Both the position numbers and the translations under genes were made by a program. From sequence record OR449013: DNA of 64,000 bases; one strand, given 5' to 3'. Shown in pieces: positions 9,452 through 59,118 of this stretch. Position 1 is the first letter of the stretch, and each line of letters starts with the position of its first letter. This DNA is from Escherichia phage Mangalyan. The notes under the pieces were generated by a model. The model searched no databases, had not been told where the DNA came from, and saw nothing but the letters and a program-made list of their open reading frames with translations.

Positions 9452-10308
9452 AAGTTGTAAAACGGGACGGTAGAGAAGAGGTCTATAACGGAATTAAGGT
9501 GATCAAGGCGGCAGAGTCCGCCTTACTTGAGTCTGGACATACTGAAGAAGAAGCTTACCGGATCGCCTGCGCGGTTAATGAAGTTGTTGCTAACACTCTA
9601 CCAACCGACCAGTGCACGATCTCTGTAAAAAATATCCATATCCTTGTTGAAGACGCTCTTATGGATATGGGTTTAAAATGTGCAGCCAGAGAATACATCC
9701 AGTATAGGCAGACAAGAGATAATAATAGAGAGGCAGGTGGAAAACTGCTTGCAGATATTAGTGGCTTCTTGGATCGCACTTGTGATGAATTTACAAAAGA
9801 AAACGCAAATAAGCCTACCAATCATGTACACACTCATCGTGACCTGCTTGCAGGCATCCTTAGCAAACACCTTGCATCAACACAGATCCTGCCAGACCGT
9901 GTCTCAGAAGAGCACAATAGAGGCTTCATCCATGTGCATGATCTTGACTACTTGATCAGTCCGTTAACAAACTGTTGTTTGGTAAATTATCCAGATATGT
10001 TGGAAAACGGATTCAACATTGGTAACGCCCATGTCAGTAAGCCGAAGTCAATAGGGGTTGCAACAACAATCCTTAGCCAAATCTCTAGTGCAGTAGCTAG
10101 TGCTCAATATGGTGGTCAGACTATGAGCCATATTGATCATTATCTGGCACAGTATGCTGAAGCGACCTATGAGAAGAACCTTAAATTTTGCCAGGAACAT
10201 TGGTTGCCAGATGCTGAGACTGTTGCAATGCAAATGACAGATAAAGACGTATTTGACAGCATGCAGACTTTGCTCTATCAAATCAATACGTTAACTTCTG
10301 TCAACGGT
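9448..10308 (+). CDS. nrdD: anaerobic ribonucleotide reductase NrdD, exon 1
   Basis: ATP-cone start MKVVKRDGREEVYNGIKV; frame ends ...LYQINTLTSVNG; last exon base is T, as expected for a group I 5' splice site. Confidence 0.75.
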
Positions 10309-11099
10309 TAACAAACTGGCCGTTGTAAAACTCTCCTAACCTCATAAGAGGGGTCGGTAAATCCGGCTAACGGGGAACGCTAAGGCGAAAGCTATGCCAA
10401 TCCCGTGACTAGTTCTTACAGGAGTTGGAACGGTTGTAACGACTAACGAAAGGCAGAGATGCTTGACAAACATTTCTGAACCAAGTAGTGTAGGGGTTAG
10501 TTGAAATACTAACTTCGAAATGGAGAGGCTCTATGAAAAAGATCATTCTTAATGGTGAAGAATCAAACTATGTGATTGATGAGGTTGGAAACGTATACGG
10601 AAAACGTGGAATGCTACACCCAATATTGTGGGGAGGTTATGGAAAAGGTAAAAAGCATGTTAAACGCCGTTATATGTACTCTTTCAACCACAAAGGTAAA
10701 AAGATTCGAATCCAAACCTCAAGGATTGTTGCCTTGTATTGTTTGCCGGATGTCCCAGAAGACCCTGAAAACTGGGAAGTGAATCATAAAGATGGCAATA
10801 CATTGAATGATCATCCGTCTAACCTAGAGTGGGTTTTGCCGGAAGATAATAAGAGACATGCTTTCCGAACAGGACTTTGTCCAGGTAAGTGCTATAGGAA
10901 AGTGCAGGCATACAAAGGGAAAACCTTGGTGGGTGAATATCCTTCACTCTATGCCTGTGCAAAAGCCTTAAATTTGAACGTAGGTAACGTTCATAGGGCT
11001 ATCGAAGGAAATGCCGAAGGTAAGCATCTCACAATAAAGGGTTATTATCTTATTGAAGTAGAGTAAGAGATAGTCTGGCCCTGTGGAAACACAGGGAGG
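10309..11099 (+). mobile_element. group I intron interrupting nrdD (boundaries +/- a few nt)
   Basis: nrdD reading frame breaks at 10309 and resumes in another frame at ~11100; 5' part 10312-10532 is ORF-free and GC-rich with GNRA-like loops (GCGAAAGC); internal HNH ORF; intron ends in G. Confidence 0.6.
10533..11066 (+). CDS. intron-encoded HNH homing endonuclease
   Basis: 177 aa; HNH block EVNHKDGNTLNDHPSNLEWVLPEDNKRHA; SD GGAGAGG before ATG; lies entirely inside the nrdD interruption. Confidence 0.65.
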   Translation: MKKIILNGEESNYVIDEVGNVYGKRGMLHPILWGGYGKGKKHVKRRYMYSFNHKGKKIRIQTSRIVALYCLPDVPEDPENWEVNHKDGNTLNDHPSNLEWVLPEDNKRHAFRTGLCPGKCYRKVQAYKGKTLVGEYPSLYACAKALNLNVGNVHRAIEGNAEGKHLTIKGYYLIEVE

Positions 11100-12368
11100 A
11101 GACAGCAGACTCCATTCATCACATTGAGTTTAGGACTGGATACCTCGGTCTTTGGTAGAATGATTACCAAAAACTACTTGAAAGTCCACAAAATGGGTCT
11201 TGGTGAAGAACGTATTACACCTGTATTCCCTAAAGTGCTGTTCTTCCTGGAAGAGGGTGTTAACATGAACCCTGGGGATCCTAACTATGATTTGAAACGA
11301 TTAGCTCTGGAATGCTGTGCAGAACGTATCTACCCTGACTTCGTATCTGTACCACTAAATAGAAAAGTGACAGGCTCGACAGATGGCAAAGTAACGAGCA
11401 TGGGTTGCCGGAGTTTTCTTAGCAAATATAATGACTTGGAAACAGGTGAGGAAAAATACCTTGGCAGATTCAACTTGGGTGTTGTTAGCCTTAACCTGCC
11501 AATGATTGCGGCAAAAGCTAAGACGGAAGGTGTTGATTTCTTTGCAGTTCTTGACGAATACTTGGATCTTGCATACGAGGCTCACCTTGTAAGGGTTAAC
11601 CGTCTAAAAGGAACAAAGGCAGGGCAGAACCCCATCATGTGGTGTGAAGGCGCTCTTGCTCGCCTGGATCCTGAAGAAAGTATTGATAAACTCTTCTATG
11701 ACGGGTACGCTTCCATCAGCATTGGGTATATTGGTGTGTATGAAACCTGTCAGATTTTGGGCAGAGAGGGTGACAAGGCTTTAGCTCTTGGAATCCTTCA
11801 GCACATGAGAGATGCTTGTGAGCGATACAAGAAGGAAAGTAGACTAGCGTTTAGCTTGTACGGCACCCCTTCTGAGAGTCTATGCTATAAAGCTGCAACC
11901 TGTCTGGATCGTGAATATCCTGAAGTGTTGAAGCACGAGCATGAATATCTCACCAACAGTTTCCATCAGCCAGTATGGATCAATAGCTCTCCTTTTGATA
12001 AGTGGGCGTATGAGGAAGGTTTTGCTATGATCTCCTCTGGTGGCAACATCGGATATGTAGAGACACCGAATCTGAAAAACAACTTAGATGCTTTAGAGGC
12101 TCTTGTTGACTTCGGGTATAAACACATTATGTATTTTGGTATTAACCAACCTGTGGATAAATGTCTCAAGTGTGGTTTCTCTGGGGAGTTCAGTGCAACA
12201 GCTAAAGGCTTTGTATGCCCAGAGTGTGGAAACCATGAAGAGGGAACGATCAGTGTGATCAGACGTGTGTCTGGATACCTTTCCAGTCCTAACTCCCGTC
12301 CTTATAATAAAGGTAAGCAAGCGGAAGTTATCGAGCGAGTTAAGCACTATGGAAGTTGTAGTTGCTGA
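11100..12368 (+). CDS. nrdD: anaerobic ribonucleotide reductase NrdD, exon 2
   Basis: frame reads RQQTPFITLSLGLDTS... from 11100 (no start codon needed); C-terminal Cys4 CLKCG...CPECG and glycyl-radical motif RVSGYL. Confidence 0.75.
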   Translation, partial: RQQTPFITLSLGLDTSVFGRMITKNYLKVHKMGLGEERITPVFPKVLFFLEEGVNMNPGDPNYDLKRLALECCAERIYPDFVSVPLNRKVTGSTDGKVTSMGCRSFLSKYNDLETGEEKYLGRFNLGVVSLNLPMIAAKAKTEGVDFFAVLDEYLDLAYEAHLVRVNRLKGTKAGQNPIMWCEGALARLDPEESIDKLFYDGYASISIGYIGVYETCQILGREGDKALALGILQHMRDACERYKKESRLAFSLYGTPSESLCYKAATCLDREYPEVLKHEHEYLTNSFHQPVWINSSPFDKWAYEEGFAMISSGGNIGYVETPNLKNNLDALEALVDFGYKHIMYFGINQPVDKCLKCGFSGEFSATAKGFVCPECGNHEEGTISVIRRVSGYLSSPNSRPYNKGKQAEVIERVKHYGSCSC

Positions 12369-12432
12369 TACTTGACAAAAGCCACAAGGATGTGGCACCA
12401 TACAGATGTTTAGGGAAGTTAGGAAACAAGAG

Positions 12433-13566
12433 ATGGCTAAATTATCGACAGAAGAGTTTATAGAGAAGGCGAAAATCATTCACGGTTATAAATACAATTA
12501 CAAGAAAACAGTGTACGTGGATTGCTATGCGAAGGTTTGCATTACCTGTCAAATCCATGGAGATTTTATGCAAGCACCTTGTCAACACTTGCAAGGTCGT
12601 GGTTGTCCTTTTTGTGCAAAACTTTCTCGTGCTACAAAGTGTAATAAAGGTCTTAAATTTGTAGAAAGAGCCAAAGAAATCCATGGAGATAACTATGACT
12701 ACTCTCTCGTATACTACAAGACTTGCAAAGATAAAGTAGAAATAATCTGCAATACTTGTGGAAATCACTTTACACAGACACCTGACAATCATATAAATTT
12801 GAAAAGAGGTTGTCCAGTTTGCAAGGGGTCAAGAATCTCACAAAGCAAAACCAAACCTCATGAAAAGTGGGTTGAGGACATAGAGAAGAAAAATACTTAT
12901 ATTGAAATATTAGAAGAGATCACCACTGGGTGGAATAAAGTATTATGTCGTTGCAAAGTTTGCAACCACGAATGGTCAGCTACGCCTGTTATCCTTAAGC
13001 GTGGTCACGGCTGCCCCGGATGTGGCGGATCTATGAAAAAGACCACTGAAGAGTTTATCCAGGACGCTGTGGCTATCCACGGGAACAAGTATGATTACTC
13101 TAAAGTGAGGTATGTGAATTCACACATCAAGGTTACAATTGTTTGCACAGATCATGGAGATTTCTGTCAATCCCCTACCCAGCATTTAGGAGGGGGAGGG
13201 TGTCCTAAATGCACCAAAAGAGGATTTTTATCCCACGATTGTGGTAAACTTTACATTATGGTTGATGATCCGGAAGTGCCTACATTTATGAAAATAGGTG
13301 TCAGTCATAATGAAAGTAAGCGAAGAGACCAGATACTTAAAAGTGCACAAAGATCTGGAGCTGGTATCTGCGATCTGTACATAGTGAAAACGTTGGAAGG
13401 ATCAACTGAAAACATGCTGGCTGTAGAAAAATCTATGCACAAAGCCTTCAGTAAATATAAAATAAACTTCCCTGTAAAATTTGATGGTAGCACCGAATTC
13501 TTCTACTACAGGCCTGAGGTGTTCAGCACAGTGGAAGCAGCGTACAAAGAGATCTGCGGTAAATGA
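12433..13566 (+). CDS. multi-zinc-ribbon protein with C-terminal T5orf172/GIY-YIG-like domain
   Basis: four tandem ~45-aa modules (IHG.KY.Y ... GCPxC); C-terminal YIMVDD...KIGVS...R...E resembles the GIY-YIG/T5orf172 fold; SD AGGAAA before ATG 12433. Confidence 0.5.
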   Translation: MAKLSTEEFIEKAKIIHGYKYNYKKTVYVDCYAKVCITCQIHGDFMQAPCQHLQGRGCPFCAKLSRATKCNKGLKFVERAKEIHGDNYDYSLVYYKTCKDKVEIICNTCGNHFTQTPDNHINLKRGCPVCKGSRISQSKTKPHEKWVEDIEKKNTYIEILEEITTGWNKVLCRCKVCNHEWSATPVILKRGHGCPGCGGSMKKTTEEFIQDAVAIHGNKYDYSKVRYVNSHIKVTIVCTDHGDFCQSPTQHLGGGGCPKCTKRGFLSHDCGKLYIMVDDPEVPTFMKIGVSHNESKRRDQILKSAQRSGAGICDLYIVKTLEGSTENMLAVEKSMHKAFSKYKINFPVKFDGSTEFFYYRPEVFSTVEAAYKEICGK

Positions 13567-47290: not shown

Positions 47291-47319
47291 CAAAAATGCC
47301 CCACCCTTTCGGGCAGGGC
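47291..47319 (-). terminator. rho-independent terminator (copy 1 of an identical pair)
   Basis: on - strand GCCCTGCCC-gaaa-GGGTGGGGC (9 bp incl. 2 G.U) followed by ATTTTTG; the same stem has A.C mismatches if read on +. Confidence 0.7.
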
Positions 47320-47334
47320 TATGTTAGTTAGGTG

Positions 47335-47958
47335 CTAAAAGTATTCATAGAGGTATCCATCGGGGGCTGGAATTTTTTCATGAATGTAGTAATCAACACA
47401 TATTCCGGTTTCTCTTCTACAAGAATTGTGGGATACCCATTCTTTAAGAACGTTTCCATTCATGTCCAGCCTTCTTACATTTTTACACCGTCTACCGCTG
47501 GTGCTTCTATGCAACAGAATATCCTCCGTCTGCTTGTCTTTATTTTCTCCCCAGGTCGTTAAACGGATATTATCAAAAGAGTACCCTTTGAAATCATCTA
47601 TCCTGTCACAAGAAGGCTTTTTCCTTTTGTCGTATCCGCTGGCTACCCACTGATCATACAACTCTTTGTAACCGTTCAGGTATAGCCACTCCTTAAACTC
47701 TTTTTTGGTGTAAGTCGGAGGAGGGTGGCCTCTTTGCTTGCTGTTGCACTTTTGAGCCTTGTACAGCACGCGTATTACACCTTTTTCTGAAGAGTCGTGG
47801 GAAAACCTGTCAGCCTCCCTGCTGGCCTTCTTGCAACACTCTTTGCACTTATTAAGATGACCGTCAGACATCTTTGGGTGTTTGTAGAACTCGGAGAGGT
47901 TTTTCACCTCTCCGCACTTGATGCACCTCTTACAATGCGTGGATTCTGCTTTTTCCAT
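47335..47958 (-). CDS. zinc-finger HNH-like endonuclease (putative homing endonuclease)
   Basis: N-terminal CKRCIKCG...[10 protein letters not shown]; later [26 protein letters not shown] resembles an HNH core; ATG 47958 assumed. Confidence 0.45.
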
Positions 47959-49201
47959 ATTGCAAACCCACCGGAGCGAAAGGTATGTCATCACAGAAGT
48001 CATACTGTGCTGGATTCTGATCCATCGGGTCATCTTCCTCGTCATTTACAGGAGGAGCGTCTACAGTGTTTTGCTGTGGAGCTGCTTCCTGTTTGGCAGC
48101 TTGAGGTTCTTGATGGTCAGTGGACCCAGCACCGTTCTTGATCCAATCGTACAACGGCTCAGCCAGATTAGTCAAGACATCTTTTGCTTCTGCAGTAATT
48201 GCCGCTGCAAAATCATCAACTTTCGTTTTCTTGTCAATACGGCGACAAGCGTTCAACACCGCATTGCCGACACTGGCACCTACTTCATCTTCAGTTCGGT
48301 TGGTGGCTTGAGCATACTCTTTCTTAAGCTCGATGGTGACTACGTGCAGTGTTTTAGCCACGCCTAGTGGGTCGTCTACCTTAAACCCACGATCCAGGAT
48401 GATCTGCAACGCATTGATGCTATGCCCCGTCTCCACACCAATAGGGTCGTAAGAGGATTTACGCTTGCCACCAGGGCCTTGAGTGCCGTTCTCTGCCTTA
48501 GGTGGGTAGGCTTTGAAACCACTGATAATGTTTCCGGTGTCTTTGTCCACAATGGCTGCAACACGACCGCCTACCACCAGGTCTTTAAGCTGCTCATCAG
48601 TTACAACCATAGCACCTTCGCCAATCTTGTGGTCATTTACAGTAACCACGTTGCCAACAATCTGAGTCACATCACCATAGATGCGTAAAACGTCCTGATT
48701 GGCATTCTGCTGAGGTTTCTGCTTCTGGCCTTGTGATTGTGCACCTTGTTGCTGTTTTTGCTGCTGAGTCGCTGCTGGAGCCTCTCCTGCGCCCAGCTTA
48801 ACCATCTTAGCCAGTGAGCCTTTGTAGTAGGTCTTACCGTTATGCTCGTTTGCCTTCAAAGGGATATTTACGATCCATCCTGGCGTTACGGTTTCCCACT
48901 TGTCATCAATCTTAACAGAGACAGAGTCTTGATGACCCGGTTTAAGCAGTTTATCACCCATGCTGATCCAGACTTCTTCACCACCTTGAAGCAGGTTATC
49001 AGAGGAATCCAGTTCAGAAATCAGTAAAGAGATGGTGTGGCTGGACTCAATTTTCTTACCTTGCCACACAGTGGTTTTAATACCTGTTGTAGGATCAGCA
49101 CCTTTGATAGGCTTGATGCTGACGCGTTTAATCATGCCGTGAGCCAGTAAAACAGTTTCACGCGGATTCATCGGGTTAGCGAATTGTTGAATAACGCTCA
49201 T
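47930..49201 (-). CDS. SSB-like protein with acidic C-terminal tail
   Basis: 423 aa; Gln-rich linker; acidic tail [22 protein letters not shown] resembles the SSB C-terminal DDDIPF tip (frame continues 16 aa beyond); SD AAGGAGA. Confidence 0.4.
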
Positions 49202-49566
49202 TATTTGTCTCCTTGTTCTTCGTTAGTGTTTGCCGTGTGTGCAAACCCTGCTTGAATTAATTTGTCCTGAACTTGAGCCAACAGGCCCATTGCAAAACTT
49301 GTGGTCCCAGAGAGGGCCATCAGCATATCTCGTTGTTGAGCTACCCAACCTAAGGCATAGTCCAAACGACGATATTTTTCTTCTTCACGCAGAGCCTGAA
49401 ATAATTGTTCAGCCTCCGGTTGTTGTGTGAGCTCCTGAAGTCTTCCCATGAAAGAAGAAAGCACTAGCAAAAGAGACACTTGATCTTTACTTAACCCTAA
49501 GAAAAATTCTTGAGGTTGTTCTTGCTCGTTCATCGCAACCGACGCTTGATCGTTCATTTGTTCCAT
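49201..49566 (-). CDS. hypothetical acidic protein
   Basis: 121-aa ORF, SD GGAGA; TAATG overlap with downstream gene. Confidence 0.5.
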   Translation of the reverse strand: MEQMNDQASVAMNEQEQPQEFFLGLSKDQVSLLLVLSSFMGRLQELTQQPEAEQLFQALREEEKYRRLDYALGWVAQQRDMLMALSGTTSFAMGLLAQVQDKLIQAGFAHTANTNEEQGDK

Positions 49567-49649
49567 TATGGAATCTCCGATTTTATTTGAACAACATAGA
49601 AGGAGACACTATTTTAGCATCCCCTTCTGTAAATTACAATAGGTATTTG

Positions 49650-49895
49650 TTAGCCAATCACTTCGAAAGTTCCCCAATTCCCGTCCAGCAGGCAGGTGAT
49701 CGGATCCCCATCGTCGTCAAAGATTTCAAAGTTTTCAGCATCCAGGATGTGGCCCTCGAACACAATACTTTCGTCGCCACCACCAGAAATAACAGCGTAT
49801 TCCTTACCTTGAGTCAAGTTTTGACACCCTTTGCCACCAAAACCTACTTCAACACAACGTACTTTCTGTCCTGCGCGAGCAACTACTTCAGTCAT
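49650..49895 (-). CDS. hypothetical protein
   Basis: 81-aa ORF, SD AGGAGA. Confidence 0.5.
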   Translation of the reverse strand: MTEVVARAGQKVRCVEVGFGGKGCQNLTQGKEYAVISGGGDESIVFEGHILDAENFEIFDDDGDPITCLLDGNWGTFEVIG

Positions 49896-49912
49896 CTTAA
49901 GGTCTCCTGATA

Positions 49913-50215
49913 TTAATCGTCAAGTTCAAAATAGATTTTAACAGCTTCATCAAAGATTGGAATCCCGATGTTGTTAATAAGCTGCCAAACTACCATATCT
50001 TTACCTGGGTCGGGGAGAATGTCAACCTTTCTCCATGCGCTGTATATCCAGTTCGGACCACCTTCTGCACTAACTGGCAGATTTTCACCAGCCTCCTGCA
50101 GATACTTATACAGCAAAAGATATTCTGGATACTCTAGAACACTGTCCTCTGTAGTATATAGCAGTTCACGGTATACTTTTAAGAACCCTGCGGGGGTGAT
50201 GTTTTCAGTCTTCAT
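49913..50215 (-). CDS. hypothetical protein
   Basis: ATG 50215 with SD AGGAGAAG; track start 50233 lacks SD. Confidence 0.45.
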   Translation of the reverse strand: MKTENITPAGFLKVYRELLYTTEDSVLEYPEYLLLYKYLQEAGENLPVSAEGGPNWIYSAWRKVDILPDPGKDMVVWQLINNIGIPIFDEAVKIYFELDD

Positions 50216-50594
50216 TTGCTGCTTCTCCTGCATTCATCAGATCTGCCATAGCGTCACCCACGAAGAGAACAACCACATCGTTGACAGCGTCAGCATCATC
50301 TTTGTTGACGTTGCTGAATTTAGGACACACAGCAATGATCATATAGACACCGTTACCAACTTGAACTGTCCGTGTGGTGCACATCATGGCGGTATTTGTG
50401 CCTTCTTTGAAGGCGAAGCCTTGAAGACGCTCCTCTAAAGTGTTACCGGTAGATTTCAGAAGCGCCAGCTCGTCCAAGGCATAGATGATATCTCCGGAAG
50501 TTAGTGTTGCCTTGCCATCAGACACCATAATCACTCCATCAGCACCATCAAACTTAGAGGCTTCAAAGATATCGATATCCCAAATATTTTTCAT
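50205..50594 (-). CDS. hypothetical protein
   Basis: ATG 50594 (track GTG 50597); SD GAGGAAG. Confidence 0.45.
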   Translation of the reverse strand: MKNIWDIDIFEASKFDGADGVIMVSDGKATLTSGDIIYALDELALLKSTGNTLEERLQGFAFKEGTNTAMMCTTRTVQVGNGVYMIIAVCPKFSNVNKDDADAVNDVVVLFVGDAMADLMNAGEAANED

Positions 50595-50866
50595 CACGCT
50601 TCCTCATCATCTAAGTAATCATCAAGAGAGGTGAAGATTTCACCGAAGTATTCTAAGATTTCTAGCTCACGTGTGGTGCAGCAAACATAATCGCCTTGGT
50701 CGTCCTTAATAGTGGCCTCTTTACCCAGAATATCTACTTCAAGTTCATCGTTCAACAGGACGGCCCCTGTGTAAACTTTGTCAGCTGTGCAGTCCCGAAA
50801 AGCAGAGTCCTTCTCCAGATAGTCTGGCTTAACCTTGGCTTTAATTCGTTGATATTGTTTGGTCAT
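50594..50866 (-). CDS. small Cys-containing protein (paralog of 50930..51184)
   Basis: ATG 50866 with SD AAGGGGA; shared block SAFRDCT vs RAFKDCT. Confidence 0.45.
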   Translation of the reverse strand: MTKQYQRIKAKVKPDYLEKDSAFRDCTADKVYTGAVLLNDELEVDILGKEATIKDDQGDYVCCTTRELEILEYFGEIFTSLDDYLDDEEA

Positions 50867-50929
50867 TGCTGTGGTCCCCTTTCGTTTTGATAGGGCCATT
50901 ATAGTAGGCCCTATGACTGTTGTCAAGCA

Positions 50930-51184
50930 TTAATGTTCAGGTTTTACAAAAACTACTTCATTAACAGTGCACCAGACAGAGTCTCCTTCATCATCTTTAA
51001 AGGTAAGGCACTGTGCTGAGTTTTCCAACTCATCAAGCTCTTCCTGTGATAGAGGAGCTCCTTCTTCCAGAAGGGCTTTTACCAAAGGGTTCTCACAAAA
51101 CTCTGCTTCATAAATTGCACCGATTGTGCAATCTTTAAAAGCTCGGTCATTTTCAACGCATTCTGGCTTCAGAGTAATTTTCAT
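50930..51184 (-). CDS. small Cys-containing protein (paralog of 50594..50866)
   Basis: SD AAGGAGA; RAFKDCT block. Confidence 0.5.
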   Translation of the reverse strand: MKITLKPECVENDRAFKDCTIGAIYEAEFCENPLVKALLEEGAPLSQEELDELENSAQCLTFKDDEGDSVWCTVNEVVFVKPEH

Positions 51185-51284
51185 CTTAGCGGTCTCCTTA
51201 AGTGTTAAACAATCAACGCTCTGTTTGTGTGAAGCATCTTATATCTAATCTTACTTCCTGTCAACGACTATTTTCGATCATCCA

Positions 51285-51632
51285 CTAAGGATCAAGATAA
51301 GTTTGTTGACTTTTTGCCCACTGACAAACTTCATTGTACATCTGAACCTCGTTGTCCGTCAATTCACGAATAGGTTCATCTATACCCTCATTTTTATGGT
51401 AATCCCATTCTGCGTCTATCTCCCACAGCCATGACTTGTTGTCACCACGCTTACGCACACAGAAATCACCAGGGCGGCCTGCCAGTGCATTTAAGAACTC
51501 GTTCTCCGCTCGCTCCTGGAGAATACTAAGGAGCAAAACGTTGGAGCATGACCGTAAAATATGCTTCAGCTCACAATCATCAATCTCAACTTCAATACGT
51601 TGTTTGACTGTGTGGGTACCTTTTACTAACAT
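51285..51632 (-). CDS. hypothetical protein
   Basis: ATG 51632 with SD GAGGAGG; track start 51659 is TTG. Confidence 0.45.
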   Translation of the reverse strand: MLVKGTHTVKQRIEVEIDDCELKHILRSCSNVLLLSILQERAENEFLNALAGRPGDFCVRKRGDNKSWLWEIDAEWDYHKNEGIDEPIRELTDNEVQMYNEVCQWAKSQQTYLDP

Positions 51633-51642
51633 CCTACCTCCT

Positions 51643-51837
51643 CTAAACGAACTCTGCAAGAGTTGTGTTGTTCACTGCACCGCAGTAAATGGAGTATCCC
51701 AGCCCATTAGAGTGCAGAAACCACGGCGTGCCGAAATTATCTTTCACGTAGACATCACCGTTGTTTGTAAAGGGCCAATATTCTTCACCAAGGGTAAAAT
51801 ACCTATTCATACCTTCAGCAAGATACTTTACTTTCAT
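51643..51837 (-). CDS. small protein, 'GKxY...KDxxG..W' paralog family
   Basis: SD GAAGAGGA; FTLGEEYWPF...VKDNFGTPWFL. Confidence 0.5.
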   Translation of the reverse strand: MKVKYLAEGMNRYFTLGEEYWPFTNNGDVYVKDNFGTPWFLHSNGLGYSIYCGAVNNTTLAEFV

Positions 51838-52061
51838 AGGTCCTCTTCAACAACTACAAACTTGGCAAGCAAAGTGGTTCCGTAGATATGATACTCACCG
51901 TTTGCCAGGTGAGAGATATACCAGGCAACCCCTTCCTCGTCTTTAATCATTTTGTTTGCACGAGCTTTATCGTAATAAACCTCGTAGGTCTTTCCTTCTT
52001 TAAAGAATGACAGGTCTGTCATCTTTTCTTCTACAAAGGTAGCTTTAACCAAAGTCGTCAT
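51834..52061 (-). CDS. small protein, 'GKxY...KDxxG..W' paralog family
   Basis: SD AAGGAGA; FKEGKTYEVYY...IKDEEGVAWYI. Confidence 0.5.
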   Translation of the reverse strand: MTTLVKATFVEEKMTDLSFFKEGKTYEVYYDKARANKMIKDEEGVAWYISHLANGEYHIYGTTLLAKFVVVEEDL

Positions 52062-52342
52062 TGATCGGTCTCCTTCTTGTTAAGTCTGAATACTGCAATA
52101 ATAGCATTCCCAAGGTGCAGTGTCAAGTCATTTCCAAGATACCACAGCATCCCACGGTCATCTTTAATGAAAGGGTAACAATCTGGTGCCTTCCAGACAT
52201 TGTACACTTTCCCAACCTGAAAGAAATCAGGCCCTGTTGGGATTTTAGTGCCTGGCCACACTTGAGATACCTGAACACACTCCACCTGCATAATAACAGG
52301 GATAGTCATGGATGTAAATGTTTTTGTTGGTTCTACTACCAT
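52058..52342 (-). CDS. small protein, 'GKxY...KDxxG..W' paralog family
   Basis: ATG 52342 with SD AGAGGAGA; FQVGKVYNVW...IKDDRGMLWYL. Confidence 0.45.
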   Translation of the reverse strand: MVVEPTKTFTSMTIPVIMQVECVQVSQVWPGTKIPTGPDFFQVGKVYNVWKAPDCYPFIKDDRGMLWYLGNDLTLHLGNAIIAVFRLNKKETDQ

Positions 52343-52391
52343 AAAAGTCTCCTCTTTGCTCAACAACACTTCCATGTGTTGATAGTTTACA

Positions 52392-52748
52392 TTAGTGACA
52401 ATCACCCCAATTACGACCACACAGGTATTCACCTGTGATCTGGAACGGGACGCCCATCATTTTAGAAGCTTGCCAGAAGCAATGCACCACCATTTCACCC
52501 ACAGGGCTCCAGATAAGTTCAAGCTTTCCGTCATCGTTCAGGATAGGATCGTACACCGTGTTTCCGTCTCTGTCAACCACTTCGTTTCCGTCCTCATCCT
52601 TGCGTGCCTTTTTGTACTTATGACCGTCGAACACATGAAGTTTGGCCTCCTGCTCTGCCTTAAATGCTTCCAGTTCTTCGATTGTGTCGAAGGTGTACAC
52701 AGTCTTATACTTCGGTGTGTCAGGGACCTGAAGTTGGTACTCATCCAT
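52392..52748 (-). CDS. hypothetical protein
   Basis: 118-aa ORF; no SD upstream of ATG; preceded by a 190-nt structured leader. Confidence 0.45.
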   Translation of the reverse strand: MDEYQLQVPDTPKYKTVYTFDTIEELEAFKAEQEAKLHVFDGHKYKKARKDEDGNEVVDRDGNTVYDPILNDDGKLELIWSPVGEMVVHCFWQASKMMGVPFQITGEYLCGRNWGDCH

Positions 52749-52940
52749 CTGTTCAGGTAGGTCGTTAAGCTACCCCGCACCATTACGTGCATAGCCATAC
52801 AGTTTCCTGTATGGATCGGACTACCTCACTGCCTTGGTAACAAGGCACCTCCCATTTCGACCGCACTTGCTGGCCTACTCTACTCGCTTCTTCACACCAA
52901 CCTGTGTTGGAGCTATGCTTTCGATAGTCTCTGAACGTTA

Positions 52941-53447
52941 CTACCAGGTGTAGTTTTTAGAGATATGTTTCCACTGTCTTCTTTGCTTTATGGCTCTGAC
53001 CGTCTCATAAGGATACCCAAGATCCCTAATCTCACATTGTCGTAGACCACTCTGCAACAGTTCGCAAATCTCTATTACCTCATCTTCTGTCAGCACAGCG
53101 TTGGCATTATACTCACCAACTGGCCTTACTCTGAGGTCATTATCATAGGCGTGCTTGATATTTCCACCAGGGGTGGTCCATTCCAGGTTCCAGTATGCAT
53201 TGTTGTACTTATTCCCATCCTTATGGTTCACCCATGTGAGCCTTTCAGGATCTGGGTTTGATACAAAGCATTCAGCAACCAGGTGGTGGACACCTTTTGT
53301 GCACTGCTTCCCCTCGATTAGCATGGTTACGCAAAGGTAACCTCTACCATTATCAAAATAAAACATTGTTGTATGATCACGTTTCGATAAAGGTATTGTT
53401 CCATCATCAAACACGGTATACCCGTGATAATCAGCTGTTCTAGCCAT
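52941..53447 (-). CDS. free-standing HNH homing endonuclease-like protein
   Basis: VHHLVAECFVSNPDPERLTWVNHKDGNKYNNAYWNLEW (HNH core), same family as the intron ORF; SD AAGGGG. Confidence 0.7.
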   Translation of the reverse strand: MARTADYHGYTVFDDGTIPLSKRDHTTMFYFDNGRGYLCVTMLIEGKQCTKGVHHLVAECFVSNPDPERLTWVNHKDGNKYNNAYWNLEWTTPGGNIKHAYDNDLRVRPVGEYNANAVLTEDEVIEICELLQSGLRQCEIRDLGYPYETVRAIKQRRQWKHISKNYTW

Positions 53448-53582
53448 TTTAACTACACCCCTTTAGTCTTCGCTGCGGATTAGCATATTGAGCTTTTACC
53501 ATACTCAGGTGTAAAAGTCAACTTAGCTTTCCCGTCAATTAAAGAGGTTATTCGACATAGATCACTCTATGAAGCCACAATG

Positions 53583-56500
53583 TTATTTATGGTAATAGAT
53601 AATACGACGAACACCTTCATCGTACCACCCACGCTTCACCATTTGATGGTGCATGAGTATCCCAACTAAGTCACACAACGATGCGCCGCCATTTTGTTGG
53701 TATGCATTAAGTAAAGAGTGTTTAGATCGGGTCCAGATGGCATGACCATCAAAAGAGTAGATAAACTTCTTACCCGTTGCTTCCCAGAATTTCTCCAGAT
53801 CTTCTTTACGCCCCTTAAGACCAGGGTTGGCATCCCAAAGTGCATCGATTACCCTTTGTCCCAACTCTGGAGAGATATCCAGCATGTCTGCAACTTTATC
53901 TTTTTGTGCCCCGTACATAACACCGTACGTGACAGGTTTACCGTCGTTACGGGAAATCTCCTTGCCTGCTACAGAAGAGTAAGCTTTGGCGTTATTACAG
54001 TTACCGCACACTGCCACTTTACCATTCCTTCTCACAATGATTGCTCCAGAAGGGACGGTAACGCAATAAACCAAAGAACCGCTCACCTCGACAGACTCTT
54101 TAGATAGTGTCAGCAACCCTGCTCTCTGTTTGCTACCAATCGTGATTCTGTGCTGTACGGAACGACCTTTTTTGTGAATCGCCACCGTATTATTCCGTAA
54201 ACCACACTGAGTAGCCAGCGCAGACACAACCTCTACAGATTTCTTCCTGCACTCGGCCTGAGAGTAGTAGGCAACTTTTCCACCTTCGGAAGATACCCAC
54301 CCGTCCCAGTTAGATAAAGAAGCTATAAACAGGTTTTTAGATTCTTTATCAAGGTCCATCAGGTTGTAGGTGAAATCCTTATTGCTGTCCAAAAACTCAA
54401 ATACCCAGGACGGAACGTGGAATTGGAACCTTCTCGCCAGTAAGCCCCCTTTTGTGGTTTTCCCGCTCTGCTCTACATAACTAAGGCTTAGAGCAGAAAA
54501 AGTATCTAAAAGCGTTGCAACTTTTCTGCCCTTCCCGACCTGAATCCTGCACACGATGCTGCCGTCCTTATTTGTATGCAAGTGCCCATCATCGTGAATA
54601 GCAATAAGCAAATTAACCTGGGCAGGAGATAAGGTTGTATTCCCATAAAACTCTGCCGCATGGATAAACCTTCTTCCTGAATTAGACCCTTTACCTGCTT
54701 TCAGGTCTTTTGCCAAATCTTCAAACAATTTATTGCTTCTGTGATCCACGGTCAGCATCCTGTGTTGATCTGTAACCATAAAATCCACACTGCTGTTGTG
54801 GAAATGATACATATCCCCACAATAACTACGCTTAACGTAATTTAATGGAGTAACAAGGTTCATCGACGAGGTGTTGTGATCGTACTGGAACACTTGTGTT
54901 CCCGGATCAAGATCTTCAAACCTCACCCACCCTTTCTCCGTGAGAATTTGTGTATCTCCTGAATAACAGTGTGCATCGCCATTACTTACAACATCATAAT
55001 ACAGACCGTTGTCAAACTCAAAGGCACCCCAGGCCCCGATGAGCTGCTCTAAGTTGGACCCGTCAATACCGATCTCAAAGTATCCTGGAGGAACACCCCA
55101 CAGACTACGCATCTCTTTACCCATAACCACTTTAGGAGATGGTTTAGGCATGTTTGCACAAATACTGTGTTTCTGTCGGGAAGTGTTTGTTAACCCAGAA
55201 CTTTTAGCAGGAAGCTTATGGTCAATCTTCAAACGTGGGTGATTAAGAAGACCAGTATCAACCTTATCCTCCTTGATTGGATCAAGGACCGATCTGCGGT
55301 TTCGCAATGATAACCACAAGACGATATCTTTAGCCATCTCTCCGTTCAATTTTTCAAGATTCGGGCATAGGTGTCCAAACGTATCTTTCAGTTGCGGAGA
55401 AGTAATAAGTGCCCTAGCTTTTCTACGTATTTTCCCGAATACTTCCTTTTTAATCCTTTCGGAGTTAGGAAAGCTTCGGAACTTGTGCACGGTTGTCTGG
55501 AACTTAGCATCAGTTTTGTTCCAGAAGTTGATAATTAGGTCACAATACTCTGACTCTAAAAGCTCGTCCATATATGCATACACTCGTGCATCAACATCTG
55601 CATCAGGTAGAGCTTTCTTCTTGCTGTCTTTAGTTACATCCTTAGTTCTCCACATTGTCGGAAGCCAACCAGCACTGATCAGGTATCGCTTAATGTCGTC
55701 CTGATTGCTGATTTTCATAGGTATCTTGCAGTCCGGCATTCGCTTCTGCTGTAGATCACTTATTGCCTGATCCATTAGCTCTTTAGGTAAAGGTTGTGGT
55801 GTGGAAGTGCCCTTAATATAGCCTCTCAAGAAATCAGCCATCTTATCAGGGTCTTTGCAGCCCATCTCTTCACACCATTTTATCCCCATCTTGCTGACAT
55901 CTCCTGTGGAGGTAAATGCTCGCTTAGGCGGGGCTTTGAACTCTAAAGCACTCATGTCCACAGGATAGCCAAGCTTATCTTTTAACCATTTCCAACCATT
56001 GTTGGAGATTGTCCCATCTTGGTTAAACGGCTTTTCAGGGAACTTGGGCCGCTGAGACATTGACAGCTCTTTTAAAGGAAGTTGAGGTTCAACACGATCA
56101 GCGATTTCTTTCATCCACGCATCGCAACGGTCACGTAAAGCAATAGCTCCATCTATGTCGAAGTATACACCCTGACGGGCCTGCAGCTCCATCAGGAAGT
56201 GCTGCAGCATGCCTCGACGTAGTGCGTTCTTCCAGGTGATCTTCTTGAACCCTTTCGGCTTCTCTTTGGCTGGATCGTACATAAAGTTCTGCATGTCAGA
56301 TTTGCCGTAGAATACACCTTTTGATTCCGCTACCAGCTCTTTCCAGAGCAGCTCCTGGATGATAACGTCCTCGAATACACGATCCACATACTTCCACAAC
56401 GGAAGATCGCGCCAGTCATCGATTTGAACTTTCTGGTTACCAAGGGCGTAGCCCCATGCCATAAGGCCGTGAGGACCAACAGGCTGCATTTTCTTAGTAA

Positions 56501-56981
56501 CCGGGTTGAATACAGAGTCCGGACAACCTTTTGGTAAAGGGCGATCAGGCCACAAGATTCGGCTCATCGCCAACGTATCAAACAGGTTAACCTGGTGGTC
56601 GTTGATAGTCCCCATACATTTAGGATCACGGAACATATCAAAATGAATACCGGATAATCTCTCCATCAGCATAAAGTCATAACTGTAGCAGTTATGGCAG
56701 TTCAAAGCTGTTGGTGACCAGTCGGAATTGCCTGTAAGCCAACCCTCCAACTCTGAAAAATCTGCTATGCGAACTTCAAAATCTTTATAAAGAGTTTTCT
56801 TTGCCAGAATAAAGTTCTTAGCCTTCTCTATATCCTCCTCGGAATAGTGTGTGCGGTCATTTAGAGGGAGGAACAGCATAAAACGGTTCTTATTCAGCTC
56901 TTTAAACAGGCCGCAGTGATAATAAAGATCTGGGTCTTCCAGCAAACCGGATGACTCAAAGTCGAACGACCACATGCTCAT
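53583..56981 (-). CDS. family A (T7-like) DNA polymerase precursor containing an intein
   Basis: SD AAGGAGA; N-terminal exonuclease FDFESSG...HCGL and HNCYSYD (T7 gp5-like); motif A GIDGSNLEQLIGAW; motif B-like RNDGKPVTYGVMYGAQ after the intein; 1132 aa including a 323-aa insertion. Confidence 0.75.
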   Translation of the reverse strand: MSMWSFDFESSGLLEDPDLYYHCGLFKELNKNRFMLFLPLNDRTHYSEEDIEKAKNFILAKKTLYKDFEVRIADFSELEGWLTGNSDWSPTALNCHNCYSYDFMLMERLSGIHFDMFRDPKCMGTINDHQVNLFDTLAMSRILWPDRPLPKGCPDSVFNPVTKKMQPVGPHGLMAWGYALGNQKVQIDDWRDLPLWKYVDRVFEDVIIQELLWKELVAESKGVFYGKSDMQNFMYDPAKEKPKGFKKITWKNALRRGMLQHFLMELQARQGVYFDIDGAIALRDRCDAWMKEIADRVEPQLPLKELSMSQRPKFPEKPFNQDGTISNNGWKWLKDKLGYPVDMSALEFKAPPKRAFTSTGDVSKMGIKWCEEMGCKDPDKMADFLRGYIKGTSTPQPLPKELMDQAISDLQQKRMPDCKIPMKISNQDDIKRYLISAGWLPTMWRTKDVTKDSKKKALPDADVDARVYAYMDELLESEYCDLIINFWNKTDAKFQTTVHKFRSFPNSERIKKEVFGKIRRKARALITSPQLKDTFGHLCPNLEKLNGEMAKDIVLWLSLRNRRSVLDPIKEDKVDTGLLNHPRLKIDHKLPAKSSGLTNTSRQKHSICANMPKPSPKVVMGKEMRSLWGVPPGYFEIGIDGSNLEQLIGAWGAFEFDNGLYYDVVSNGDAHCYSGDTQILTEKGWVRFEDLDPGTQVFQYDHNTSSMNLVTPLNYVKRSYCGDMYHFHNSSVDFMVTDQHRMLTVDHRSNKLFEDLAKDLKAGKGSNSGRRFIHAAEFYGNTTLSPAQVNLLIAIHDDGHLHTNKDGSIVCRIQVGKGRKVATLLDTFSALSLSYVEQSGKTTKGGLLARRFQFHVPSWVFEFLDSNKDFTYNLMDLDKESKNLFIASLSNWDGWVSSEGGKVAYYSQAECRKKSVEVVSALATQCGLRNNTVAIHKKGRSVQHRITIGSKQRAGLLTLSKESVEVSGSLVYCVTVPSGAIIVRRNGKVAVCGNCNNAKAYSSVAGKEISRNDGKPVTYGVMYGAQKDKVADMLDISPELGQRVIDALWDANPGLKGRKEDLEKFWEATGKKFIYSFDGHAIWTRSKHSLLNAYQQNGGASLCDLVGILMHHQMVKRGWYDEGVRRIIYYHK
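54000..54968 (-). mobile_element. intein (323 aa) with LAGLIDADG-like endonuclease motifs
   Basis: starts CYSGDTQILTEKGWVRFEDL (block A), ends ...GKVAVCGN followed by +1 Cys; internal LLIAIHDDG and LFIASLSNWDG; inserted between polymerase GDAH and motif B. Confidence 0.65.
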
Positions 56982-57039: not shown

Positions 57040-59118
57040 TTAAAAAGGTGTTTCATCGTCCTCAAAACCAGGGACAGGGTCAGAGGATGGATCATCGTAC
57101 TGGAGGTCTTCCTGCGTGTCAACAGGCTTAACAGTAGGAGTTACAACCTTATCAGCCACAACCTTACCCATAGGTGTTTCTACAACTGTATGCTCCTGAT
57201 CCTCAAACATAGCCTGAGGTCTCCAAACAACCTCCCCACCTTCTCCGTCTGTAAACATCTGCATTTCTTTGTCCCAGTACCAATTGCTGGCATCATGGAA
57301 CTTGCCTGTGTGAGGGTCCATAACTAAAGTGTCAGCAATACCTAAAGTTTTTGCTGGACGGTTTTTAAGACCTACCAGACGGACACGTCCACGAGAACGA
57401 TCCACCATTTCTTCGGCCTCGACACCTATGACTACCCAACTCAACTGTTCAAGCCCAGCCGATCCTCGCAAATTCTCTTTTCGCACAGGATACCAGAAAG
57501 GTAACGGGTTACCATCCTTGTCCTTAGGAGGCACAATCTCTATACGCTTGAGGTGAGCGATCACCAAGATAAACACGTTAAACTGCTTACAAAACGCAGC
57601 CAGTTGGGTCATAGCCATGTCCAGTTCTTTTCGCTCATCCTTAACATTAAGCCCTGAAATTACCATGGACAGGTGATCCAGTACAATATAACGACAATGG
57701 TACAGGCAAACCATTTGCTTAAGCTTAGTAATCAACTCGTCCACCGGAATAGATCCGAAATGTTTGAACACTTTGATTTTTCCAGCTTTTGCCCATGATT
57801 GGTGAATCTCTGCGTGTTCTTGATCAGTTAAAAACTGGCTAGGATCTTCAACAAACTCTTTAACATCAAACCCTAACTGGTTTGCATACAAGGAGTTAAT
57901 TGCTTCCTCTGGGTCCTCCTCAAGATGGATCATGCATAGACGATCATCCTCTTCGTAGTCATCGGCCTTCGGACATGTCGGGTCCATTAGGTATCTTGCA
58001 ATACAGTGTTCCAGTTTTTTAGCTACGGTTGTTTTACCGCCACCTGACGGACCTGTAAGCATTACAAGTGTCCCTTTGTGCAAGCCTTTTAGCATTTTTT
58101 GCAGTTTTGGGAACTCTGCGCTGATATCTACCCCGTTGGAAGTCTTTTTCCGCAAAGACTCGATAGAGAAGTCTTCTAAATCCGACACAGCATCAGGCAC
58201 ATATTTAACAGGGTGCCGGAACATGTTGACAATATCTTCCAGCTTTTTAGCCTTCAGCATGTCTCGGATATCTTTTACACCGTCAGGGTCGTTTACTTCA
58301 CCAGGGTATTCTACGTGGTAAACGTTATCGGCCATCAAAAATGCTGCGATATTGTGCGTGGCCTCAACACCTTTAATGACGTGTTTTTGCTTCTCTACCT
58401 CGTTAGCTGCATCGTTATCCATTGCCAGCACAACTGTTCCATAGCTACGGATAAACTTCTCATTGTTTGCAAAAGTATCTACTGCGTTTGCACATCCACA
58501 GTTAATTCCAACAAAAGGCAGGCAGGGTTTTCCTGCCAGATCACCACCATTGATAACTGCGTCGATCCCGTCCTGGACCTCTTTAGCCCACTGCTTCACC
58601 TTTGCCGGGGCTTTAGCGTTGGTGAGAATCCCTTTTACTTGTATCTGATATGCAGCCTGCCATGCTGCAATAACATCCCCTTCTCCCTCACAAACGTTAA
58701 TCTGCTTACGGTTGTTGGAAGATGCACACAGCTTTTGACCAAACATCTGAGAGTTAGCCTTTACGATGCCAACAACGGAGAAATGGCCCCTTTGCTCTTT
58801 AGGAATCGTCCAGTCACGCTTTTTGAAACCGGACAGATTTCCGTAGCGGTCGTAATATGGGAAATATGTTGCAGTGACTGTCACACCGTCTTCTTGGGAC
58901 AATGCTGATCGCACACCAAAATATTGTGCAGCCATCAGACCGATATTTTGTTGTGGGACAGGGACAATTTTAGTATTTTCTAAAACAGTTTCTACAGTTT
59001 CAACTTCTTTTTCATCACGATAGTCTCGTTTCACACTTCCCCCACTCTTATACTTAGTTGCTTTCGGGTTTGGCTCACCGAAACGGTTGTATGCAGATGC
59101 CATAAATTTACTTCCCAT
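57040..59118 (-). CDS. primase-helicase (TOPRIM primase domain + DnaB-like helicase, T7 gp4-like)
   Basis: TOPRIM-like INVCEGEGD and LAMDNDAAN; Walker A LTGPSGGGKTT; 692 aa; SD AAGGAG. Confidence 0.6.
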   Translation of the reverse strand: MGSKFMASAYNRFGEPNPKATKYKSGGSVKRDYRDEKEVETVETVLENTKIVPVPQQNIGLMAAQYFGVRSALSQEDGVTVTATYFPYYDRYGNLSGFKKRDWTIPKEQRGHFSVVGIVKANSQMFGQKLCASSNNRKQINVCEGEGDVIAAWQAAYQIQVKGILTNAKAPAKVKQWAKEVQDGIDAVINGGDLAGKPCLPFVGINCGCANAVDTFANNEKFIRSYGTVVLAMDNDAANEVEKQKHVIKGVEATHNIAAFLMADNVYHVEYPGEVNDPDGVKDIRDMLKAKKLEDIVNMFRHPVKYVPDAVSDLEDFSIESLRKKTSNGVDISAEFPKLQKMLKGLHKGTLVMLTGPSGGGKTTVAKKLEHCIARYLMDPTCPKADDYEEDDRLCMIHLEEDPEEAINSLYANQLGFDVKEFVEDPSQFLTDQEHAEIHQSWAKAGKIKVFKHFGSIPVDELITKLKQMVCLYHCRYIVLDHLSMVISGLNVKDERKELDMAMTQLAAFCKQFNVFILVIAHLKRIEIVPPKDKDGNPLPFWYPVRKENLRGSAGLEQLSWVVIGVEAEEMVDRSRGRVRLVGLKNRPAKTLGIADTLVMDPHTGKFHDASNWYWDKEMQMFTDGEGGEVVWRPQAMFEDQEHTVVETPMGKVVADKVVTPTVKPVDTQEDLQYDDPSSDPVPGFEDDETPF

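Follow-up and report, generated by a model that had tools for sequence, protein, structure and literature searches.

Background

Group I introns that carry a gene for an HNH endonuclease have been described from the family A DNA polymerase genes of several bacteriophages, namely SPO1 (I-HmuI), SP82 (I-HmuII), Bastille (I-BasI), Pf-WMP3 (I-PfoP3I) and PhiI/W31 (I-TslI). They are phage-type group I introns with P7.1/P7.2 helices which interrupt a catalytic motif, their HNH open reading frame (ORF) is placed in a peripheral loop, and intron-less alleles exist. Here we analyze two nuclease genes in a stretch of 64,000 nucleotides (nt) from Escherichia phage Mangalyan (OR449013), referred to as the window, to which all positions refer. 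The first, ORF 52941-53447, lies in such an intron of the polymerase gene, and the second, ORF 47335-47958, stands free behind an SSB-like gene. We consider it likely that they represent two different selfish elements, an intron-borne HNH endonuclease and a free-standing homing-type nuclease.

The intron of the window splits the catalytic motif C between His and Asp (YYH/DEYQ). Motif C of E. coli Pol I is presumably H881-D882-E883, so that 'site 881' would be this same H/D position. The intron of PhiI/W31 has been placed at 'site 881' in E. coli numbering (PMC3428280). Those of SPO1 and Pf-WMP3 differ in being located at site 674. Further differences from the known polymerase introns are the host, a large Vequintavirinae myovirus, the presence of an intein in the same gene, and the occurrence of ORF-less and ORF-bearing intron lineages side by side in one genus.

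Both elements are probably ordinary selfish phage elements, and both have already been annotated in close relatives. In phage EmilHeitz (BASEL, MZ501062) the polymerase is given as a two-part joined coding sequence (CDS) with a nested 'putative homing endonuclease', and the homolog of ORF 47335-47958 bears the same label. In the Certrevirus Pectobacterium phage CB7, two HNH introns in the polymerase gene have been found to splice by RT-PCR (PMC7344957). The window differs from these Vequintavirinae annotations (EmilHeitz, CB7) in that it combines an intein, the HNH intron and a long-tail allele of the nuclease locus.

Free-standing homing endonucleases such as T4 Seg/Mob, F-TslI of T3 gene 5.3 and F-CphI of S-PM2 are, like ORF 47335-47958, encoded by sporadic intergenic genes that adjoin a conserved replication gene and whose surroundings diverge in sequence chiefly at the junction. 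ORF 47335-47958 differs from them in its catalytic variant and in its apparent target, which is a short tail motif in non-homologous genes and not one conserved gene. Its core resembles that of PacI (PDB 3ldy/3m7k; His-Me finger group 20), in which the general-base His is lacking and a loop Tyr takes its function (PMC5714182). Only this PacI-type chemistry and the steady placement of the family behind genes with SSB-type tails go beyond the routine.

A group I intron in the polymerase gene

A 7.2-kb stretch around both genes shows 93–97% identity to 121 phage records, nearly all of them Vequintavirus (rV5-like coliphages). All genes of the region are on the minus strand. Both nuclease ORFs are real, full length in every sampled allele and under purifying selection, with ratios of nonsynonymous to synonymous substitution rates (dN/dS) of 0.06–0.17. 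The polymerase region contains the following features (aa, amino acids):

53589..56981, minus strand: exon 1 of the DNA polymerase gene (family A), which ends with ...RRIIYYH (CAT at 53589-53591) and holds the intein (PHROG 17/8888, slur16, T7)
54000..54968, minus strand: intein of 323 aa, CYSGD...VCGN followed by Cys at +1 (slur16 gap, Hint_2 block)
52746..53588, minus strand: group I intron of 843 nt with P7.1/P7.2 and P9.1/P9.2 helices (Rfam RF00028, covariation, intronless alleles)
52940..53467, minus strand: endonuclease cassette of 528 nt (JLBYU08 and HMD-6, whose introns lack the ORF, as reference)
52941..53447, minus strand: HNH homing endonuclease of the I-HmuI type, 168 aa (PHROG 59, I-HmuI 1u3e, dN/dS, 30 records)
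52392..52745, minus strand: exon 2 of the DNA polymerase gene, DEYQLQV...GRNWGDCH followed by a stop codon (PHROG 8888, slur16 C-terminus)

An earlier reading of the window, made from the sequence alone (the sequence-only reading), had taken the HNH gene for a free-standing one immediately downstream of a complete polymerase gene. The in-frame TAA at 53583-53585, which ends the long polymerase ORF, would agree with this, as would the separate CDSs in many GenBank records including RefSeq rV5 and APECc02. The TAA is however intron sequence. The long ORF stops right after ...RRIIYYH and therefore lacks the Asp-Glu of motif C; the C-terminal domain is lacking too, and both are encoded in 52392-52745. 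In the PHROG 8888 profile 'DNA polymerase', the end of the long ORF covers positions 49–185 and the small ORF 52392-52748 covers positions 185–295. Exon 1 can be aligned to T7 DNA polymerase through VHDE, and exon 2 begins with DEYQLQV and ends with GRNWGDCH, like T7 DNA polymerase. The spliced translation restores YYHDE and the C-terminal NWxxCH. When the 323-aa insertion is left out, the predicted spliced product is collinear with the slur16 polymerase, an uninterrupted protein of 925 aa, and shows no difference from it across the junction; the whole exon 2 translation is likewise identical to the slur16 C-terminus. Removal of the intron thus restores the host frame just as it is found in intronless alleles, where the two polymerase parts are joined exactly. 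With our boundaries, the exons amount to 2778 nt, as does the slur16 gene. The HNH ORF is furthermore flanked by two halves of a group I intron with covariation support. The collinearity with slur16 already refutes a free-standing intergenic HNH gene, to which we attach practically no credence; the polymerase resumes beyond the HNH ORF, which is part of an intron.

At 53589 the 5' splice site comes directly after CCAU, which forms P1 with UUGUGG (CCAU/AA) and contributes a U.G pair to it. The 3' splice site is located behind ...CAGAUG at 52746, and the intron has a terminal G (...UG). Between the two sites lies a conserved P3–P8 core with the P3/P7 pseudoknot. The predicted spliced junction reads ...UAUUACCAU followed directly by GAUGAGUAC... 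The 3' boundary proposed by Rfam (...GUAUG, 52796) was rejected, as it puts the junction out of frame; the true 3' splice site is located 50 nt further, past P9.1/P9.2.

For the analysis of the RNA structure, 8 introns of this one site were aligned, those of the window and of APECc02 with the cassette excised, and those of JLBYU08, HMD-6, rV5, Avunavirus 18-1-2 and two Vibrio phages. When ORF-bearing and ORF-less introns were aligned globally with MAFFT, the 5' half was misplaced, and the alignment was repeated with the cassette excised. The hand-written P1–P9.2 structure, including the P3/P7 pseudoknot helices and P7.1/P7.2, comprises 71 pairs in 14 helices. Standard pairs fill 98.1% of the cells over the 8 introns, compared to 33–38% when the partners are slid by 1–3 columns, and 26 of the 71 pairs change on both sides; none of 500 shuffles reached the observed values. 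The compensatory changes are found in P2, P3, P4, P6a, P7, P7.2, P8, P9, P9.1 and P9.2.

Some results weigh against the intron as proposed here. At the gathering threshold, Rfam gave no match over the whole window, and the intron surfaced by way of an E-value threshold and the comparison with ORF-less alleles. RF00028 reaches 28.5 bits for the 5' half of the intron alone, compared to a gathering threshold of 50, because the 528-nt cassette interrupts the model at P6. The ORF-less intron of rV5 at the same site scores 64.7 bits, and five other ORF-less introns at this site score 70–91 bits (up to 91.2), all above the threshold. JLBYU08, which has the core without ORF and differs from the window in 1 core position, scores 72.5 bits. 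In addition, Pfam HNH_3 remains at 17.8 bits on ORF 52941-53447, under its cut-off of 24.8. Finally, the last three intron bases form an in-frame ATG (TTG or GTG in relatives), which would permit a separate translation of exon 2.

This ATG leads to the suggestion that the polymerase is made as two polypeptides of 1132 and 118 aa which assemble without RNA splicing, as is reportedly the case for the Aeh1 NrdA that is split by mobE. One HNH insertion of CB7 did indeed not splice (PMC7344957), and two-polypeptide assembly was suggested for one CB7 gene. In the window, however, the break would fall within the catalytic HDE triad, and the intervening RNA retains a complete catalytic core, compensatory changes, a U.G pair at the 5' splice site and a terminal G. 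Moreover, ORF-less versions of the intron persist in approximately 25–28 genomes and, by eye, there is no Shine-Dalgarno sequence ahead of exon 2; as start codons make up three of the four NTG triplets, an apparent start of exon 2 is expected by chance. We therefore regard the assembly of two separate polypeptides as very improbable.

The comparisons show the anatomy of the element, its exon junction, its RNA structure and the polymorphism of its alleles (see below); that the intron splices and that its endonuclease cleaves we infer. Most likely, the intron would splice itself from the mRNA and join ...IIYYH to DEYQLQV..., giving a precursor of 1248 aa from which the 323-aa intein would then remove itself. 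During mixed infection, the HNH endonuclease would most likely nick or cut intronless polymerase alleles near the insertion site, and repair of this cut would copy the intron into the intronless allele (homing).

The endonuclease cassette

The assignment of ORF 52941-53447 as an HNH endonuclease, made in the sequence-only reading, holds. The protein contains WVNHKDGNKYNNAYWNLEW, is matched by PHROG 59 'HNH endonuclease' at 1.4e-36 and resembles the solved HNH homing endonuclease I-HmuI (1u3e) with an E value of 1.8e-5, whereby NHKDGNKYNN...NLEW aligns with DHKDGNKDNN...NLRW of I-HmuI. The same reading had put it into one family with the ORF of the nrdD intron (10533-11066). The HNH cores are indeed alike (48% over 48 aa, E 2e-8), but the likeness is confined to them. 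Against three other alleles, dN/dS of the ORF is 0.06–0.17, and the ORF is present at no less than 94.7% identity in exactly 30 Vequintavirus records, within an intron that some alleles of the site carry and others lack.

A 20-nt leader containing AAGGGG (Shine-Dalgarno-like), the 507-nt ORF and 1 nt make up the cassette. It stands in place of a 14-nt P6a hairpin, CAUCCGAGAGGAUG (CAUCC-GAGA-GGAUG), that is found in JLBYU08 and HMD-6, where the intron is ORF-less (329 and 328 nt, respectively) and has almost the same core as that of the window.

A perfect 9-bp inverted repeat (53451-53459 / 52947-52955) brackets the HNH ORF, with one arm, GGUGUAGUU, right before the AUG and the other, AACUACACC, at the codons N-Y-T ahead of the stop codon. 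It might close a P6 extension, mask the ribosome-binding region and limit translation from unspliced RNA, which is put forward as a suggestion only, because a region as large as this one would by chance contain approximately 0.6 repeats of the kind.

Variation at the intron site

A synthetic 400-nt spliced junction was used as a probe against the relatives. Intronless relatives, among them slur16, JeffSchatz, Murica, EduardKellenberger, nomine and ECP26, match it contiguously with up to 98.5% identity. In genomes of the rV5 type it is interrupted by 276 nt, in JEP1 by 328 nt, and in 30 genomes it is split into two separate places. The 276-nt intron is found at 95% identity or more in approximately 24 records, and in rV5 itself the polymerase pieces are 276 nt apart with no HNH gene between them. 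Altogether there are, as rough totals, 30 alleles with intron and HNH ORF, approximately 25–28 with an ORF-less intron and approximately 60 without intron. Introns of the rV5 type and of the window type are about 85% identical in their 3' halves, compared to about 97% identity of the exons, and judged by these sequences they are distinct lineages at one site. The site also carries related HNH-bearing introns in phages of Seunavirus and Certrevirus and in Klebsiella and Vibrio phages.

The peptide around the junction is the same in all 14 alleles compared. Four of the seven intronless alleles (slur16, nomine, ECP26, EI-SP-GF) differ in the first codons of exon 2 (window 52728-52745) by four synonymous changes, which are linked and fall within its first 12 nt, with GAC GAA TAT CAG versus GAT GAG TAC CAA; the latter version is that of the intronless JeffSchatz and Murica. 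The other three are identical to the intron-bearing exons at these positions. The GAC GAA TAT CAG haplotype may be a variant of the target that resists cleavage.

In the Vibrio phages K470 and IBT_VpB-34 an ORF-less group I intron is found at the same polymerase site, and an annotated HNH gene begins approximately 250 nt past the intron end, before or within the rest of the polymerase region. This layout is reminiscent of the route that has been proposed for the invasion of introns by free-standing endonuclease genes.

In the rV5 genome paper, the terminase gene is the only one for which introns are mentioned, and the polymerase is given as 775 aa (PMC3606486). In RefSeq rV5 (NC_011041; 7082-7721 of the rV5 stretch) the polymerase is represented by two CDSs, gp223 and gp220, and the 'hypothetical proteins' gp221 and gp222, which lie inside or overlap the 276-nt intron, are annotation artefacts.

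Among the relatives there are 16 GenBank records (MG0656xx) named 'Campylobacter phage', which are without annotation and of which 15 list C. jejuni as host. Being approximately 96% identical to E. coli rV5-like phages in this region, they clearly belong to the same coliphage group, and their naming or host assignment looks doubtful.

The free-standing nuclease gene

The second locus contains the following features:

47335..47958, minus strand: free-standing nuclease gene, 207 aa (ATG at 47958), with zinc ribbon, PacI-type core and I-HmuI/NUMOD-like C-terminal domain
47930..49201, minus strand: SSB-like gene (PHROG 4477) with the tail ...DFCDDIPF (F codon 47978-47980) and a 15-aa extension (47933-47977)
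47298..47319, minus strand: intrinsic terminator common to the SSB-like and nuclease genes

ORF 47335-47958 had been described in the sequence-only reading as a zinc-finger protein with an HNH-like core, adjacent to an SSB-like gene. The position is correct: the gene abuts and overlaps the SSB-like gene, whose 15-aa extension overlaps its start. Zinc finger and core can be confirmed as well, although the core is PacI-like and not a canonical HNH. Approximately 200 members of the family were found. In an alignment of 35 of its members, C12, C15, C38 and C41 (CxxC...CKxC) are invariant and form a 4-Cys zinc ribbon. They are followed by the motif PS(C/V)DR(I/L)DD.KGYS..NI.L.TW.EN, with invariant R119, Y126 and N139 and with D118 in at least 90% of the members, and then by a C-terminal segment. 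D118, R119, Y126 and N139 belong to the beta-beta-alpha-metal core, where the general-base His of I-HmuI aligns to Arg.

A family profile matches PacI over the zinc ribbon and VDRSDSFEGYSPQNARL (E 0.0029); its match to I-HmuI (E 0.0028) covers the HNH region as well as the C-terminal domain. PacI and I-HmuI are also matched at the level of the fold. The loop Tyr of PacI aligns with the invariant Y126. The general-base His is absent, and D-R, the loop Tyr and the metal-binding Asn are conserved; judged by this alignment, the core is PacI-like with a conserved Tyr in place of the general base. Of the two Cys4 zinc sites only the N-terminal one is kept, and the positions of PacI C109/C112 read T/W/G/E (TTWGE instead of ACFIC). 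ORF 47335-47958 also differs from PacI by a helical insert and by the additional C-terminal NUMOD/I-HmuI-like domain; in Pfam, 14 of the 35 members match 'I-HmuI NUMOD-like' and 9 match NUMOD1. As the gene is phage-borne and optional, it probably encodes a homing enzyme rather than a restriction enzyme. Together with the similarity of ORF 52941-53447 to I-HmuI, these profile matches bear out the earlier view that both ORFs are homing-type His-Me/HNH nucleases.

In databases this protein is commonly labelled as T4 endonuclease VII, and PHROG 1035 'endonuclease VII' does match it at 1e-40. This label was rejected: Pfam Endonuclease_7 (PF02945) was not among the 25 most-matched of 40 Pfam families (E 1 or below) when the 35 members were scanned. 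The gene is an ordinary-looking optional phage nuclease gene of a mislabelled family. Two further candidates were rejected, as neither phi92 gp155 nor the 'endonuclease' encoded behind the SSB gene of phage g341c is homologous to it.

The lack of the general-base His, together with the sub-threshold HNH_3 score of the intron ORF, could be taken as a sign that one or both ORFs are decaying, inactive relics. This is hardly compatible with the full length and the low dN/dS of every sampled allele (0.06–0.12 for ORF 47335-47958), nor with D, R, Y and N being invariant or nearly so in the 35 members, which matches the set of the active PacI, and we hold it to be most improbable.

ORF 47335-47958 is present in approximately 51 of the 121 Vequintavirus relatives, with approximately 31 full-length matches and approximately 20 in which the first 81 nt are divergent. 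Among others it is found in rV5, CM1 and slur16 and is absent from APECc02. With this and the HNH ORF in 30 of approximately 121 close relatives, the comparison of relatives that the sequence-only reading had called for reveals presence/absence polymorphism for both genes.

There are three alleles of the locus. In APECc02 there is no nuclease gene and the SSB-like protein ends with ...YTFDDDIPF*; in slur16 a variant nuclease gene of 192 aa follows 8 nt after ...YEFDDSIPF*; and in the window and rV5 ...YDFCDDIPF is followed by the 15-residue extension, with the start codon of the nuclease within the last codons. At the junction, substitutions are concentrated in the eight final codons of the SSB-like gene. 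The terminator hairpin follows the nuclease gene in the window and follows directly upon the SSB-like stop codon in APECc02; located between the 3' end of the SSB-like gene and its terminator, the nuclease gene is probably co-transcribed. The gene is thus optional at a fixed intergenic site in near-identical genomes and lies outside any intron or intein, i.e. it is free-standing, as had been proposed. The two junctions in Vequintavirus share the microhomology CCTTTC / TACTTT. A second such pair is found in Proteus, where phage V3 lacks the nuclease gene and a prophage has a homolog; in the prophage the Phe codon is immediately followed by the cassette, and downstream of it pieces of what used to be tail-coding DNA persist.

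It was considered whether the 15-aa extension had been created by the insertion of the nuclease gene. This was rejected, as the same motif, IPF-AP(I/V)GL.Y.(K/R)..I(H/Y)(A/V)(L/I), is found in approximately 200 phage records including genes without such a nuclease downstream, e.g. in the Seunavirus-like R7 and in phage V3. The extension occurs across SSBs, rV5-type SSB-like proteins and a primase/helicase, and buries the normally C-terminal Phe.

Association with SSB-type tails

DDDIPF is the conserved C-terminal interaction motif of SSB (PMC5872125). Homologs of ORF 47335-47958 that are 48–79% identical are found directly after canonical SSB genes ending with ...DDQEIPF* (Proteus prophages) or ...DDEIPHSS*, directly after rV5-type SSB-like genes, after a small protein following ERF which ends with ...DTEIPF*, and after an SF2 helicase with ...DEDIPF near its end; in a crAss-like context such a tail is lacking. 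For a systematic test, 78 IMG/VR loci with 75 testable upstream genes were searched for an acidic-(I/L/V)PF motif in the last 45 residues. The motif was present in 14 of the 75 upstream genes compared to 6 of 818 other ORFs of the same loci (Fisher 7e-12), including the upstream genes of all ten relatives with at least 47% identity; four relatives of approximately 40% identity behind primase-helicases ending with ...EEVPF* also show it. At least five unrelated families are represented among the upstream proteins (SSB PF00436, DUF736, BT4734_N + DnaB_C primase-helicase, ResIII/Helicase_C, PHROG 4477), and these mutually non-homologous genes have only the "(D/E)(I/V)PF" SSB-Ct-like tail in common. 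Literature searches on a connection of homing endonucleases with SSB tails yielded no relevant result.

This pattern of adjacency suggests homing to tail-coding DNA. In particular, ORF 47335-47958 might represent a so far uncharacterised family of homing endonucleases, free-standing and with an active site of the PacI type (Tyr instead of His), whose homing site would be the DNA that encodes the SSB tip (D/E)(D/E)x(I/V)PF; this we put forward tentatively, with somewhat less than even confidence. Most likely the product would cleave nuclease-less alleles in or next to the acidic SSB-type tail DNA and spread by repair. As many unrelated phage replication proteins keep the SSB tip to engage host partners, the nuclease gene could move between non-homologous genes, and its hosts would be SSB, DUF736, primase-helicase, SF2 helicase and rV5-type SSB-like genes.

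Several observations speak against a homing-type element at this locus. Pfam gave no match on the protein of the window. The short-tail nuclease-less Vequintavirus allele may be ancestral or a deletion product, so that either gain or loss could account for the polymorphism. Finally, the steady adjacency to SSB-type genes could indicate a working partnership, e.g. in a recombination module, instead of homing. 'SSB-like' itself rests on the tail, as sequence searches with the 423-aa neighbour gave no SSB fold assignment.

Such a partnership would make ORF 47335-47958 an accessory recombination or repair nuclease which is not selfish and which adjoins the SSB-tail proteins as their partner. The homologs within RecT-YqaJ-SSB and ERF modules would agree with this, as would the very strong adjacency to tail-bearing genes and the purifying selection on the ORF. 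However, the gene is optional among genomes that are approximately 96% identical, the same adjacency is seen outside recombination modules (primase-helicase, SF2 helicase, DUF736), and the cassette interrupts tail-coding DNA in Proteus phages. In addition, site-specific homing enzymes typically possess a NUMOD/I-HmuI-like domain such as the C-terminal one found here, and Endonuclease_7 was not among the 25 most-matched Pfam families of the 35 members scanned. We therefore consider an accessory role unlikely and prefer a homing-type nuclease. That the nuclease works together with the tail-bearing proteins would be equally new, and is the weaker alternative to homing into the tail-coding DNA.

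The primase-helicase just upstream of the polymerase gene (57040-59118, minus strand) has an acidic aromatic tail, ...GFEDDETPF*, which resembles SSB-type and T7 gp4-type tails.

Other homing-type elements of the window

The intein of the polymerase has an N-terminal Cys, a C-terminal Asn and Cys at +1 (C...GN/C) and is absent from close homologs such as slur16. In comparison with the slur16 polymerase, the gap is exactly 323 aa, with Gln replaced by Cys at +1. The N-terminal block of Hint_2 matches at 7e-5, below the Pfam cut-off, and two LAGLIDADG-like motifs can be recognized by eye. The intein is found in only 6 phage records of the approximately 121 relatives. Amino-acid substitutions are concentrated in the 20 residues past the intein (NNAKAYSSVAGKEIS versus NNAEAYTKVAGREVS), as expected from co-conversion. 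Intein, HNH intron and ORF 47335-47958 are three optional elements that assort independently among the relatives, and besides the window all three occur together only in PQ014731 (approximately 93% identical).

The nrdD gene (9448-12368, plus strand) is split into 9448-10311 and 11124-12368, which correspond to Pfam NRDD positions 1–154 and 163–562. The HNH_3 ORF 10533-11066 lies between the halves, and a partial group I intron signal of 27.7 bits is found at 10809-11096. This ORF is located toward the 5' part of the spacer, a layout unlike that of the polymerase intron. Directly after nrdD, 12406-13566 (plus strand) encodes a protein of 386 aa in which treble-clef zinc fingers are repeated (DUF4379, 2.2e-12) and which also has a T5orf172 domain (24.9 bits, cut-off 20); judged by this domain match only, it is a putative homing-type nuclease. 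With the nrdD intron and its HNH ORF, the polymerase intein, the polymerase intron and its HNH ORF, ORF 47335-47958 and the T5orf172 protein, the window does contain the five homing-type elements that had been counted in it from the sequence, the last of them by its domain match.

Conclusions

The polymerase intron is an element of a well-known kind which is already correctly annotated in some close relatives, and the practical gain lies in the annotation. RefSeq rV5 and many other records split the polymerase into two 'DNA polymerase' CDSs accompanied by spurious small ORFs, and both this split-polymerase label and the label 'endonuclease VII' of the second nuclease are wrong. With three natural alleles at one intron site (none, ORF-less and ORF-bearing) in genomes that are approximately 96% identical, these phages offer a handy system for studying gain and loss of introns and their endonucleases.

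If the link to SSB tails reflects targeting, a short peptide motif under functional constraint would serve a homing endonuclease as a landing pad that is portable between unrelated genes and, if this is true, a Tyr-type His-Me enzyme would join the known homing endonuclease families.

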